The notes under the pieces: model-generated
Seen by the model: the letters and a program-made list of their open reading frames with translations, nothing else
Database searches by the model: none
Told to the model about the DNA's origin: nothing
Part shown: positions 8,968 through 62,323 of the stretch, in pieces
Numbering within the stretch: the first letter of the stretch is position 1
Layout of the letters: each line of letters begins with the position of its first letter
Translations under genes and position numbers: made by a program
Assembly (NCBI RefSeq): GCF_036507355.1
Contig: NZ_AP027877.1
From: Escherichia coli
GTDB taxonomy: Bacteria; Pseudomonadota; Gammaproteobacteria; Enterobacterales; Enterobacteriaceae
Strand: one strand, 5' to 3'
DNA length: 64,000 bases

Positions 8968-10017
8968 TTATGCGATGACGCTTTGAATCACATAGTTAAT
9001 CGCACCACCACCAACAATCAGCCAGGCAAACAGTACCAGTGCCATCAGCAGAGGTTTCGCCCCGGCTTTTTTCAGCGCGCTGACGTGAGTGGTCAGACCC
9101 AGCGCCGCCATCGCCATTGCCAGCAGGAAGGTATCCAGCGTTACCAGCATGTTCACCACGCTCTGCGGTAACAGGTGGAACGAGTTAAAGATGGCAACTA
9201 CGATGAACAAGATGGCAAACCACGGAATAGTGATTTTGCTTTTCTCGCCGCTGTTCGCCCCAGACAGCTGTTTAACACGCGCCGCCAGCAGGATGAGGAA
9301 CGGAGCCAGCATCATCACGCGCAGCATTTTGGAAATAACTGCTGCGTTTTCCGCATCCGGGCTGATGGCATGACCTGCCGCCACCACCTGCGCCACTTCG
9401 TGCACAGTAGAACCAATGTAGATACCGAAAGTTTCCGGACTAAACCATTGAGACATCAGCGGATATATCGCCGGGTAGAGGAAAATCGCGACGGTCCCGA
9501 AGATAACAACGGTTGCAACAGCCACGGTTACTTTACTGGCTTCCGCTTTCACTACCGGCTCAGTCGCCAGTACCGCGGCAGCACCACAAATACTGCTACC
9601 GGCACCGATCAACCAGCTGGTGTGCTTATCCAGACCAAACACTTTCTGCCCCAGGAAGCAAGCCAGCAGGAAGGTACTGGACAGCGTCAGCACGTCAATG
9701 ATGATCCCACTGATACCGACATCGGCAATTTGCGAGAACGTCAGACGGAAGCCATAAAGAATGATACCCAGACGTAATAAATATTGCTTGGCAAACAGCA
9801 CACCACCGTCACAGCTTTTCCAGATGTGCGGATAGATGGTGTTGCCTAAAACCATCCCCAACAAGATTGCGAGGGTGAGGGCACTAAACCCGGCACCCGC
9901 AACCGCGGGAATGGAACCACCCCACAGGGCGACCCCGGTGATAACTGCACTCAGGGCTAACCCCGGAATAAAATGCCACAGTGTACGATGTTGTTTCTGT
10001 AAGGTGATATTCGTCAT
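8968..10017 (-). CDS. yeiH: UPF0324 family inner membrane protein
   Basis: 349-aa polytopic membrane ORF; divergent from the LysR regulator yeiE. Confidence 0.85.
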
Positions 10018-23047: not shown

Positions 23048-23232
23048 TTGTAGGCCGGATAAGGCGTTCACGCCGCATCCGGCGACAGGAGCCAAATGCC
23101 GGATGCAACGCTGGCGCGTTTTATCCGGCCTACAATGAGCTCAACATACTGATTTGTATGGTTTTGTAGGCCGAATAAGGCGTTCAAGCCGCATCCGGCG
23201 ACAGGAACCAAATGCCGGATGCGTCTCTGGTT
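23048..23232. repeat. cluster of REP (repetitive extragenic palindromic) units / BIME
   Basis: Four units of GCCGGATAAGGCGTTCACGCCGCATCCGGC-type palindromes in alternating orientation between the convergent mglC and preA. Confidence 0.8.
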
Positions 23233-25700: not shown

Positions 25701-25743
25701 GTGATCTTCCTTAATGCTATGAGTAATTAAGGCGAACGCTAAT

Positions 25744-25869
25744 ATACTCGTCATACTTCAAGTTGCATGTGCTGCGTCTGCGTTCGCTCACCCCAGTCAC
25801 TTACTTATGTAAGCTCCTGGGGACTCACTCACTTGTCGCCTTCCTGCAACTCGAATTATTTAGAGTATA
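25744..25869. repeat. ERIC / IRU intergenic repeat element (~126 bp)
   Basis: Contains the ERIC core in reverse orientation (CGCTCACCCCAGTCACTTACTTATGTAAGCTCCTGGGGA) flanked by TATACTCG...GAGTATA terminal inverted repeats. Confidence 0.8.
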
Positions 25870-26017
25870 AATATTGCGTGCTGATATTAAGGCTATGCGC
25901 GTGGGGAAATTTAAACTGTGAAAGGATTCACAAATAGCTGCGGTTCAGAATGTTATATCCGCAGCTTATTGAGTGAAGTAATAATTATTCTCAATAATTA
26001 ACAGAAAAGAGAAAATA

Positions 26018-40927: not shown

Positions 40928-41056
40928 AGCATTTCCTCACGATTCTCCTTTGACGATCGCACTTTTTGCTCGTTATGATGGCGTCGCTAGCCTCAGTAAA
41001 TCCTTACTCCGGCGGTGCGCAACCCGTGCGCGTGAACCACTATCTGAATGCTCATC

Positions 41057-60285: not shown

Positions 60286-61374
60286 TCACGGCAGGCGGTG
60301 ACGGGCTTGATAATAAGCCTGCCAGTGAGCTTCTTTATGTGTGGCGACACGCTGTTCGAAGTAACGGCGCAGACGAGCGCGATCTTCTTCGTTATCTTTG
60401 ACGATGGTTCCGGCAATACAGTCCACCAGGTCGGCAGGCTCCCCCGCACGATTCGCTAAAAACCAGGCGCGGACGCCCACAGCGTGAGCCACATTCACGG
60501 CTTCAGCGGTGGACATAATTGCCGTCAGTGTATCCATTGACGTTTTCTTTTCGCCGTTGGCACGCAGATCGCGGAAGGTGCGGACCAGTAACTCCAGTAC
60601 CGCGTCAGGCACTTTATGCGGAATACCGCTATGGGCCAGCAAACGCGCCGAAGCACTGGCGACAAGCTCCAGCTCCTGGGCGAAATCCATAATCGGAAAG
60701 ACAGTTTCAAAATCGAAGCGACGCTTTAGCGCAGCACTCATTTCATTGACGCCGCGATCGCGGGTATTGTCAGTGGCAATAATATTAAAGCCTTCTCGCG
60801 CATAGAGCTGACTGGCTTCACCAGTGAGTTCCGGCACCGTCATCACCCTGTCAGAAAGCATACCTAACAGACAGTCTTGCACTTCCAGCGGTGTACGCGT
60901 TATCTCTTCAAAACGGACGATTTTGCCGTCGCGCATTCCCTGGTAAAGCGGGGCTGGGACCAGCGCTTCCGTTGATGGACCATGATTGATAAGCAGGGCG
61001 TAGTTCCAGCCGTACTTGATTTGATCTTCGGTAGTAGATGCGCCGTCCTGGATGGTTAACCCGGCATCGCCGCTAATAGCGGTTGCCAGTAATTCAGACA
61101 GGAGAGATTTTGCGGTGCCAGATTCCCCCACCAACATCAAACCGCGTCCGGTGGCAAGAGTGACTAACATACGTTCGACAGCGGAGGGACTAATCACCAC
61201 TTTACGGCTAATATTTTGCGCGCTATCGCCAAGGATAAAAGCACGGGCCGCAGGCAAACTTAACTGCCAACCGGGCGGGCAAGGTGCGTTATCATTTTGT
61301 TTTAATTTTGCCAGTTCATCGGCGTATAACACAGCAGCAGGCGGACGCTGCAGATGATTATTCTGCGGTGACAT
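60286..61374 (-). CDS. yehL: MoxR-like AAA+ ATPase
   Basis: ORF 60286..61440 trimmed to MSPQNNHLQRPPAAVLYADE... (362 aa); Walker A GESGTAKS at nt 61105..61128; AAA+ core. Confidence 0.85.
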   Translation of the reverse strand: MSPQNNHLQRPPAAVLYADELAKLKQNDNAPCPPGWQLSLPAARAFILGDSAQNISRKVVISPSAVERMLVTLATGRGLMLVGESGTAKSLLSELLATAISGDAGLTIQDGASTTEDQIKYGWNYALLINHGPSTEALVPAPLYQGMRDGKIVRFEEITRTPLEVQDCLLGMLSDRVMTVPELTGEASQLYAREGFNIIATDNTRDRGVNEMSAALKRRFDFETVFPIMDFAQELELVASASARLLAHSGIPHKVPDAVLELLVRTFRDLRANGEKKTSMDTLTAIMSTAEAVNVAHAVGVRAWFLANRAGEPADLVDCIAGTIVKDNEEDRARLRRYFEQRVATHKEAHWQAYYQARHRLP

Positions 61375-61484
61375 ATATTCATCCCTGAAATGTATTAATG
61401 AAATAAACGATATTTTACGTGCAATAAATGTTTGGCGCATTAGTTGTTTGAGCGAAAAATATCTGGAAAGCAGATCACAGTAAA

Positions 61485-61568
61485 TAAAAAAACCTGCTGG
61501 TGAGGCAGGTTCTTTTATTTACTATTTTCAGGCCTAACACCACAGCCTGTGCAACATCGTGTTCCAAC
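61485..61568 (-). ncRNA. orzO: candidate OrzO-like antitoxin sRNA of the zor/orz type I TA locus
   Basis: Minus-strand sigma70 promoter (-35 TTGCAA 61603..61598, 17-nt spacer, -10 TATAAT 61580..61575) precedes a region whose transcript would be complementary to the zorO 5' UTR (direct DNA repeat 61549..61573 vs 61715..61739), ending at a minus-strand hairpin plus U-tract (stem 61492..61510, A-run 61485..61491 on plus strand). Boundaries approximate. Confidence 0.45.
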
Positions 61569-61574
61569 GAACGA

Positions 61575-61625
61575 ATTATAACCACGGCTGGACCCCGTTG
61601 CAATTAAGATAATGAGATTTATAAT
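61575..61625. promoter_or_regulatory. back-to-back divergent promoters for zorO (+) and orzO (-) sharing one palindromic -35 hexamer
   Basis: Plus strand: TTGCAA (61598..61603), 16-nt spacer, TATAAT (61620..61625). Minus strand: the same self-complementary TTGCAA, 17-nt spacer, TATAAT (61580..61575). Predicted zorO TSS gives a ~174-nt 5' UTR. Confidence 0.45.
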
Positions 61626-61806
61626 CCAGACCGTTGGGACGTTGCGCCGGATCGGACCAATTTTAAGTCCTGGCTACCGGACGGGTGGTGCTGCAGGTGG
61701 TGCCCTGATCCGGAGTGCAACATCGTGGTCCAACATACGTAAACCAGTATCGACAGGCAGTGTAAGGGTAAGGTGCTGGTGTTGCGCTCCTTAATAAGGA
61801 GAGCGG

Positions 61807-61896
61807 ATGGACACGCTGACACAAAAGTTAACCGTGCTCATTGCTGTACTGGAGCTATTAGTAGCTCTGTTACGGTTGATTGATTTGTTGAAGTAA
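61807..61896 (+). CDS. zorO: type I toxin ZorO (29-aa hydrophobic membrane peptide)
   Basis: Read from sequence: AAGGAG RBS then ATG...MDTLTQKLTVLIAVLELLVALLRLIDLLK; matches recalled ZorO of enterohaemorrhagic E. coli; below track cutoff. Confidence 0.8.
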   Translation: MDTLTQKLTVLIAVLELLVALLRLIDLLK

Positions 61897-61919
61897 CGGG
61901 CAAATTGAAACGCATCTAA

Positions 61920-61942
61920 GGGGGAAAACCGCTTCCCCCTTT
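61920..61942 (+). terminator. rho-independent terminator of zorO
   Basis: GGGGGAA-aaccgc-TTCCCCC hairpin followed by TTT. Confidence 0.5.
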
Positions 61943-61950
61943 AATAAAGC

Positions 61951-62005
61951 TATACTCGTCATATTTCAAGTTGCATGTGCTGCGACTTGAATTATCTAGA
62001 GTATA
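61951..62005. repeat. short ERIC-like element (terminal arms only)
   Basis: TATACTCGTCATATTTCAAGTTGCATGTGCTGCG...GAATTATCTAGAGTATA matches the outer arms of the full ERIC at 25744..25869 but lacks the central core. Confidence 0.5.
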
Positions 62006-62323
62006 TTATTCTATTTCTTGGTTGAATATATTCTGTAGTTCACGATTAAAAATTGCTATTACAGTTTCAGGTGATTCACCTCGTAATTTCCGCTCATCAA
62101 TACACTCATCTCTTATATAAATCAACGCATCATTTATTAGCGGGTCAGCATCTTCTCGATCACGTTGATGAAATGTTGGATGTAGCCGGAATCGCTCCAG
62201 TCGATAGACGGAACCTGTAAATAATTCAGAGCATTTATGGATCTCAAGTCTGAAGGAAAACGGATCTTCAGGTACAGGGACCTCATAATCGTAAATAGCA
62301 ACTAGCTCTTTTTGCACGATCAT
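62006..62323 (-). CDS. yehK: small protein of unknown function
   Basis: 105-aa ORF MIVQKELVAIYDYEVPVPEDPFSF...; sits between yehI and the zorO insertion. Confidence 0.8.
   Translation of the reverse strand: MIVQKELVAIYDYEVPVPEDPFSFRLEIHKCSELFTGSVYRLERFRLHPTFHQRDREDADPLINDALIYIRDECIDERKLRGESPETVIAIFNRELQNIFNQEIE

Follow-up and report, generated by a model that had tools for sequence, protein, structure and literature searches.

An intact zor/orz type I toxin-antitoxin module between yehK and yehL in Escherichia coli DNA of 64,000 nucleotides

Positions 61486-61942 of the analysed Escherichia coli DNA (one stretch of 64,000 nucleotides, in the following called the window) are an intact zor/orz type I toxin-antitoxin module located between yehK and yehL. 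With a probability of about 90%, the module is present as an intact single copy, belongs to the zorP/orzP specificity type, encodes a peptide with the sequence of ZorO and would act by the mechanism published for the EHEC orthologues. The locus is already known and ordinary; the family is well studied, and the site between yehK and yehL is the canonical one. The zor/orz family was described by Fozo et al. (2010) and dissected in later work (Wen et al. 2014, 2017; mSystems 2024). Its distribution, its copy-number variants and the orphan antitoxin of K-12 have been published already. For EDL933, Z3289 and Z3290 were located between yehI and yehL (Fozo et al. 2010). Published experiments identified Z3289 and Z3290 as toxic, detected sRNAs of about 85 nt and mapped the transcription start sites. 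The pairs were named zorO/orzO (Z3289) and zorP/orzP (Z3290) (Wen et al. 2014). The value of the present analysis lies in annotation and in the design of experiments: a peptide match alone leads to the wrong paralogue name, and the choice of antitoxin is set by the RNA specificity type, which is P and not O here.

The features of the locus and its flanks are listed below with coordinates, strand and the basis of each assignment.

60286..61374, minus strand: yehL (MoxR-like AAA ATPase), downstream of orz and on the same strand (RefSeq annotation of syntenic genomes, ORF list)
61479..61523, no strand assigned: orz intrinsic terminator (terminator scan, inverted repeat, ViennaRNA fold of the sRNA)
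61486..61568, minus strand: orz sRNA gene of OrzP type, about 83 nt (Rfam, identity to O157:H7 orzP, V1)
61575..61603, minus strand: orz promoter TTGCAA-17-TATAAT (promoter scan, 10/12 consensus)
61598..61625, plus strand: zor promoter TTGCAA-16-TATAAT (promoter scan, 10/12 consensus)
61633..61942, plus strand: predicted zor mRNA, about 310 nt (UTR length computed from the sequence)
61705..61734, plus strand: EAP or standby region, +73..+102 (mapped from Wen et al. 2017 and mSystems 2024)
61716..61734, plus strand: Orz target box, +84..+102, UGCAACAUCGUGGUCCAAC (direct repeat, complementarity, duplex energy)
61784..61804, plus strand: RBS-sequestering hairpin GCGCTCCTTA / TAAGGAGAGC (10-bp inverted repeat, predicted fold)
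61807..61896, plus strand: zor toxin ORF, 29 aa (ORF list, identity to Swiss-Prot ZORO_ECO57)
61920..61942, plus strand: zor terminator hairpin GGGGGAAAACCGCTTCCCCC followed by TTT, zorP-type (sequence, fold)
61951..62005, no strand assigned: internally deleted ERIC element abutting the yehK stop codon (inverted repeat, comparison with a full ERIC)
62006..62323, minus strand: yehK, upstream flank (RefSeq annotation of syntenic genomes, ORF list)

When the sequence was re-examined, every feature listed in a preliminary description of this DNA was present at its coordinates. The zor/orz locus between yehK and yehL, which had been proposed there, could be confirmed by the ZorO-identical peptide, the Rfam OrzO-P match, the 174-nt UTR and the flanking genes. 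The gap between yehL and yehK comprises 631 bp and houses the whole locus. The published elements (-35/-10 hexamers, 174-nt UTR, RBS at +164..+169 and EAP at +73..+102) were found in the window at their published offsets. The names yehL and yehK were taken from the RefSeq annotation of K-12, O157:H7 and E105. The zor/orz locus was unannotated by RefSeq/PGAP in every genome sampled, and NCBIfam contains no Zor model.

The antitoxin gene was identified with the Rfam model RF02083 (OrzO-P), which matched positions 61486-61561 on the minus strand with 99.9 bits (gathering score 60, E = 1.5e-16). This match spans the full model (1-76) and is the only one of its kind in the window. Weak Rfam matches to Thr/Trp leaders and to isrH were below their gathering scores and were rejected as terminator or ERIC look-alikes. 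Together with the promoter TTGCAA-17-TATAAT and the terminator, the RF02083 match verifies the divergent small-RNA gene described previously, with a predicted length of about 83 nt. The transcription start at about 61568 was derived from the spacing to the -10 hexamer, together with the 5' end published for OrzP. The 5' end of the sRNA reads GUUGGAACACGAUGUUGCA and carries ACG at V1 (+9..+11). The hexamers TTGCAA and TATAAT are conserved in more than 99% of the published zor/orz loci. A minus-strand hairpin with U-tract had been suggested as the end of orz and was recovered, with a G+C core stem at 61491-61511 and a tract of seven U on the minus strand from 61492 to 61486. The inverted repeat of this terminator has 19-nt arms with 95% complementarity. 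Flanked by A-rich and T-rich extensions, the core stem has the shape of a bidirectional terminator.

The promoter of zor is arranged divergently to that of orz, and the palindromic -35 hexamer at 61598-61603 is common to both. The start of zor at about 61633 is a G seven bases 3' of the promoter and results in a leader of 174 nt (61633-61806), in agreement with the UTR length given before. This 5' UTR is 97.7% identical to that of zorP. The part that is processed off in EHEC zorO is equivalent to the first 28 nt of this leader (61633-61660); for EHEC zorO, a delta-28 form and two transcripts, of about 310 and 280 nt, were published (Wen et al. 2014, 2017). The 29-aa hydrophobic ORF with a strong RBS, also part of the preliminary description, was found at 61807..61896; its product MDTLTQKLTVLIAVLELLVALLRLIDLLK is identical to ZorO (Swiss-Prot ZORO_ECO57). 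The RBS AAGGAG (61796-61801, +164..+169) is located 5 nt before the ATG and inside the hairpin, and its unpaired probability is 0.07 in the predicted full-length fold. The EAP region contains the conserved GGAGTG (61712-61717) and pairs with the 5' end of the mRNA in the same predicted fold. Its predicted unpaired probability is 0.30 for the full-length and 0.40 for the delta-28 form, and the same trend was obtained for zorO. Loss of the 28 nt is predicted to open the EAP to a modest degree, as much as the same calculation gives for the experimentally probed zorO. The separate terminator ascribed to zor is present as a hairpin with the arms GGGGGAA..TTCCCCC at 61920-61939 followed by TTT. It was not called by a consensus terminator scan because its U-tract is short.

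The paralogue was determined by alignment of the window unit (61455-61944) to both units of one O157:H7 genome. The identities were as follows.

Whole unit: zorP/orzP 482/490 (98.4%); zorO/orzO 88.6%
sRNA: orzP 84/84; orzO 76%
EAP/target stretch: zorP 41/41; zorO 83%
CDS: zorP 89/90; zorO 87/90

The preliminary description had assigned the locus to zorO/orzO, with EHEC zorO/orzO as the reference for a nucleotide comparison. This comparison supports the assignment for the peptide, which is identical, but not for the RNAs, which are closer to zorP/orzP; as the name of the paralogue, zorO/orzO had to be given up. The only difference from the CDS of zorP is codon 3, ACG (Thr) here versus TCG (Ser), and this exchange yields the ZorO peptide. 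Residue 3 is threonine and not the serine that marks the ZorP peptide. The marks of type O, GAA at V1 and a zorO box, were not found in this locus, whereas those of type P were: ACG at V1, highest identity to zorP/orzP and the yehL-proximal position. By these comparisons the locus is classified as P-type in its RNAs and ZorO in the sequence of its peptide. In the census of 2024 (mSystems), the ZorO sequence was reported for 72.5% of all zor ORFs. P-type boxes together with Thr3 were found in all sampled single-copy genomes (E105, 2022H047, RIVM_C037166 and Escherichia sp. MOD1-EC7003). The combination of P-type RNA and ZorO peptide is ordinary, and Ser3 looks like a feature of tandem-copy lineages and not of P-type RNAs. 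That the locus represents the zorO/orzO paralogue proper has next to no probability left. This reading is based on the peptide with Thr3, but the ZorO peptide is the majority across locus types and does not identify the paralogue. In addition, the V1 triplet, the sRNA, the target box, the whole-unit identity, the synonymous sites of the CDS and the terminator are all of P-type. At the level of sequence the zorO/orzO reading is refuted already.

The first 19 nt of the sRNA form 18 of 19 possible pairs with the target box, which is identical to the zorP box, in the pattern 6(1)12 with one internal A.G mismatch. The calculated duplex energy is -28.1 kcal/mol with the own sRNA versus -18.5 kcal/mol with EHEC OrzO. 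According to the published rule, at least 15 continuous base pairs, or at least 17 discontinuous base pairs with one mismatch, are needed. The 18/19 pairs of the window locus satisfy this rule, and the pairing of its target with EHEC OrzO (15/19, longest run 8) falls below it. No other site complementary to the sRNA 5' 19-mer was found within two mismatches in the 64-kb window; by shuffles of the window, zero such matches are expected by chance. A duplex calculation with the whole sRNA and the whole mRNA (RNAduplex, -61.5 kcal/mol) was discarded, since it ignores intramolecular structure and shuffled sequences reach -60.9 kcal/mol; the analysis of the 19-nt 5' box was used instead. The 5' ends of the leader and of Orz both start with GUUGG and share the same box. 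Their similarity scored about 2-2.6 standard deviations above shuffles, and we make no claim of an origin by inverted duplication.

Target choice depends on the triplet V1, which is GAA in OrzO and ACG in OrzP. OrzP was unable to repress zorO, and OrzO with swapped V1 failed on wild-type zorO (Wen et al. 2014). In the zor/orz literature consulted, direct repression of zorP by OrzP was not shown, and the V1-swap experiments were performed in the zorO/OrzO background only. From the pairing rule of Wen et al. (2014), EHEC OrzO should fail against the P-type target in the window. Hence, a rescue assay with EHEC orzO would probably fail for this locus. Among the loci fetched, three chromosomal box types occur, namely P, O and a third one in strain 1105. 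Each chromosomal sRNA fits its own leader by two-sided changes at positions 6 and 9-11. Including the island-borne relative described below, four specificity types keep their pairing by compensatory changes on both RNAs. The co-variation of box and sRNA across the types requires selection on the interaction.

The steps of the mechanism were shown for the EHEC orthologues and are transferred to the window copy on the basis of near-identity. The zor promoter would give rise to an mRNA of about 310 nt, in which the 5' end of the leader pairs with the EAP (+73..+102) and the RBS is held in a hairpin. Once the first 28 nt are removed, the EAP region would be exposed as a ribosome standby site, and translation would become possible. 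For EHEC zorO, Wen et al. (2017) reported that the 28-nt removal activates translation and defined the RBS (+164..+169) and the region "exposed after processing" (EAP, +73..+102). The RBS hairpin and the pairing of the 5' end with the EAP were reproduced by our own structure predictions. When overproduced, the 29-aa inner-membrane peptide is expected to depolarise the membrane, deplete ATP and stop growth; membrane depolarisation by ZorO has been shown in the literature. Through its 5'-terminal 19 nt, the sRNA of about 83 nt would pair with the mRNA at +84..+102 and thereby block standby loading, followed by RNase III-dependent and Hfq-independent decay. OrzO was demonstrated to rescue from ZorO toxicity in an RNase III-dependent manner (Wen et al. 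2014). Specificity would come from sRNA positions 6 and 9-11, and the window copy is predicted to answer to an OrzP-type and not to an OrzO-type RNA. Concerning the physiological role, multicopy zor-orz was reported to improve growth in aminoglycosides independently of toxicity. A single chromosomal copy of zorO-orzO gave no kanamycin phenotype. Thus, the module may contribute little in single copy.

Among 5426 complete E. coli genomes, 5232 matched the zor/orz interval at least in part. A coverage of 80% or more of the locus was reached in 3392, so that at least 3392 contain the full pair, and the EHEC-type spacer between tandem units was detected in 1799. In about one third of the E. coli genomes the toxin is lost and orz is kept. 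These counts agree with the published census, which gives two copies for 42%, one copy for 25%, orz only for about 30% and no copy for 3%. When one genome of each prokaryotic species was scanned for the orz terminator 21-mer, the locus turned up in three other species, with two units in E. whittamii, a single P-type unit in Escherichia sp. MOD1-EC7003 and a single O-type unit in Escherichia sp. E1V33, each time adjoining yehK and yehL. The preliminary description had placed the locus among those known from pathogenic strains; with full pairs in such a number of E. coli genomes and in other Escherichia species, it is not specific for pathogens.

The K-12 strain MG1655 matches positions 61441-61666 of the window with 98.7% identity over 226 nt. 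It retains the orz gene with promoter and terminator, the zor promoter and the first 34 nt (approximately) of the leader. Target box and toxin ORF are missing owing to a deletion that starts at about +35 of the leader, takes in the left ERIC arm and has its right end inside the right arm of the remnant. The retained gene is the published and expressed orphan OrzPmg. The earlier statement that the locus is absent from K-12 is therefore correct for the toxin ORF and the target box, but a complete orzP gene and the zor promoter are kept. The same note had also regarded the locus as inserted between yehK and yehL, which reverses the direction of the event. Since K-12 keeps the orz remnant and other Escherichia species share the site, K-12 is a deletion derivative and the state in the window is ancestral-like.

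The ERIC remnant mentioned in the preliminary description was found again at 61951-62005. Relative to the full ERIC at 25743-25870 of the window, only the two termini are present in it, and about 72 bp were lost internally. On the other side of the locus, a simple promoter scan of the 110 nt between orz and yehL gave no sigma-70-like candidate. From this geometry, an effect of the orz terminator on yehL transcription, including an insulation of yehL, is a possible candidate idea. A disrupted yehI, considered for the 502-aa ORF from 63892, was rejected: the frame is open to 64000 and the gene runs off the window.

A divergent relative of the module was observed outside the yehK-yehL site. Two unverified low-coverage wastewater contigs designated as "phage" contain a unit with 70-80% identity to that of the window and with an intact ORF encoding MDMLMRKLIVLIAVLELLLALLRLIDLLK. 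This peptide occurs exactly on 313 contigs with Salmonella enterica source names, and a close variant beginning with MDMLTRKL occurs on 238 contigs with E. coli names. Hence, the wastewater contigs are probably host DNA. Among complete E. coli genomes, the divergent unit was found in strain G4/9 only. There, it is located in a tRNA-Asn integrative island and is convergent with the integrase; the island also holds a DRT4/DRT6-type reverse transcriptase, which is split in two ORFs. The island unit has all parts of the zor/orz module and its own pairing box, which is longer and of entirely different sequence but still forms 21 bp, at the leader position where the chromosomal boxes lie. In a limited literature search no paper describing this unit was found. 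Exact patterns of the family and of the island branch gave no match in IMG/VR or in JGI metagenomes.

The locus could be a largely silent relic, whose toxin is effectively never made and in which selection acts on the orz sRNA or on the terminator; orz could regulate trans targets or set the transcription into yehL. We consider this possible but unlikely. The third of E. coli genomes that keeps orz with promoter and terminator after deletion of zor agrees with it, as do the expression of OrzPmg in MG1655, the position of orz, terminator and yehL on one strand with a gap in which the scan found no sigma-70-like promoter, and the lack of a phenotype of a single zorO-orzO copy. However, all zor elements (promoter, leader, RBS hairpin, ORF and pairing box) are intact here, in thousands of genomes and in sister species, the pairing box co-varies with the sRNA in a way that points to selection on their interaction, and the window offers no other complementary site for the Orz 5' 19-mer. 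A related idea, to which we give a still lower probability and which is quite doubtful, is that the yehK-yehL pair descends from a mobile addiction module and became domesticated, in view of the island-borne branch of the family with its own pairing specificity, and that the retained orz and its terminator have a second job in yehL transcription or on trans targets. If true, this second job would be the reason why orz is kept after the loss of zor.

The preliminary description had further suggested a connection to a defence locus. A guard of the abortive-infection type, associated with defence and functionally tied to yehLMPQ, would fit the adjacency to yehL and the divergent relative beside the DRT4/DRT6-type reverse transcriptase, the latter being one context and a different locus. 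PADLOC-DB v2, however, gave no match for YehI, YehK, YehL, YehM, YehP, YehQ or the Zor peptide, and nothing tying yehLMPQ to defence was found in the searchable literature. Moreover, the toxin is gone from about a third of the genomes while yehL-Q remain, and phage records are without the locus, except for the two contigs of probable host DNA. The window locus is chromosomal and not phage-borne. The defence connection is thus highly improbable. The preferred reading remains the intact single-copy module with P-type RNAs.

Compared with known systems, the locus is closest to zorP/orzP of O157:H7 EDL933 (Z3290 / sRNA-2). Both have the yehL-proximal position in common, and sRNA, target/EAP box and terminator are identical. 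Besides codon 3, seven further substitutions separate them, none of which is located in a promoter hexamer, the pairing box or the RBS. In the window the unit is the sole copy and abuts the flank of ERIC and yehK, whereas in EHEC the zorO/orzO unit follows next after zorP/orzP. With zorO/orzO (Z3289 / sRNA-1 of EDL933), the experimentally dissected pair, the locus shares the peptide, the architecture, the UTR length and the positions of the RBS, EAP and GGAG motifs. It differs in nucleotide sequence as given above, most clearly in the 5' half of the sRNA (58% identity) and in V1 (GAA versus ACG in the window). The systems tisB/istR-1 and shoB/ohsC resemble zor/orz in the divergent antitoxin, whose 5' end is complementary over a short stretch, and in the long structured leader, the activating 5' processing and the logic of a standby site. 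Their sequences are unrelated to zor/orz, and tisB is under control of LexA, while no such control is known for zor. For dinQ/agrB, a stretch of about 113 nt of the zor leader was published to be 71-74% identical to plasmid dinQ leaders. In an IncX1 plasmid from Salmonella, we found this match with 74% identity immediately before an annotated dinQ; the toxin ORF and the antitoxin of dinQ/agrB differ from those of zor/orz.

A unit resembling zor/orz, the toxin gene with its divergent antitoxin RNA gene, was identified outside the yehK-yehL interval. It was located in three sequences:

E. coli G4/9 (NZ_CP060073.1), ~8990-9500: divergent zor/orz-like unit
L012, wastewater contig labelled as phage, probably host DNA, 1002-1457: divergent zor/orz-like unit
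L013, contig of the same kind (OR851665.1), 179-510: divergent zor/orz-like unit

The nucleotide identity of this unit to the window is 70-80%. Its 29-aa ORF reads MDM[LT/LM]RKLIVLIAVLELLLALLRLIDLLK, and it carries an Orz/zor pairing box of its own with a length of 21 bp. The G4/9 copy lies inside a tRNA-Asn integrative island, where it and the integrase gene converge; a split reverse transcriptase of the DRT4/DRT6 type is located in the same island. Exact variants of the peptide were detected in 238 contigs named E. coli and in 313 named Salmonella enterica. This suggests a mobile zor/orz branch beyond the yeh locus of E. coli and Shigella.

The copy in OR851665.1 lacks the segment that separates the orz box from the zor target box, a gap that takes out both promoters together with the start of the leader. 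Exactly this gap would be produced by recombination between the two boxes, which are direct repeats.

Furthermore, a third pairing type was found in E. coli 1105, which has a single-copy locus (908-1100 of the sampled sequence). Here, Orz 5' GUUGGGGCGCCAUGUUGCA is opposed to the target UGCAACAUGGCGACUCAAC. The mismatch at position 7 is shared with the P type, the type of the window. The locus may represent the published zorQ/orzQ type, despite a peptide with the ZorO sequence. The yehK-yehL interval can also be replaced, as in E. coli SW07091, where only 60 nt of the query remain. An IS1 element adjoins yehL in this strain, and on the yehK/yehI side a truncated WGR-domain pseudogene was found in its place.

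Both divergent promoters of the zor/orz locus in the window use the same -35 hexamer, the self-reverse-complementary TTGCAA at 61598-61603. The zor and orz transcripts both start with GUUGG, and each 5' end can pair with the same CCAAC in the EAP region of the leader; statistically, the two 5' ends resemble each other weakly. On the minus strand, a simple scan detected no sigma-70-like promoter in the stretch from the orz terminator to the start codon of yehL (61375-61485). Thus, yehL may be expressed by read-through or from a promoter that departs from the consensus.

Both zor and orz lack a RefSeq/PGAP annotation in all genomes sampled. This was checked for 61441-62005 of the window and for all sampled RefSeq genomes, and no annotated features were present under the match. 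No NCBIfam model matching the Zor peptide was found. Three other elements were located in the window:

25743-25870: full-length ERIC element, containing the exact ERIC2 primer sequence
23053-23130, plus strand: naRNA4/CssrE (Rfam, 85.8 bits, above the gathering score)
40972-41052, plus strand: Peptidase-S11 RNA motif (Rfam, 72.8 bits, above the gathering score)

Positions ~206-318 of the zor/orz unit, within the zor leader, matched the Salmonella IncX1 plasmid NZ_CP039600.1 at 601-715 with 74% identity, about 35 nt upstream of the annotated toxin gene dinQ. This match reproduces the resemblance between the zor and dinQ leaders already noted in the mSystems 2024 paper.
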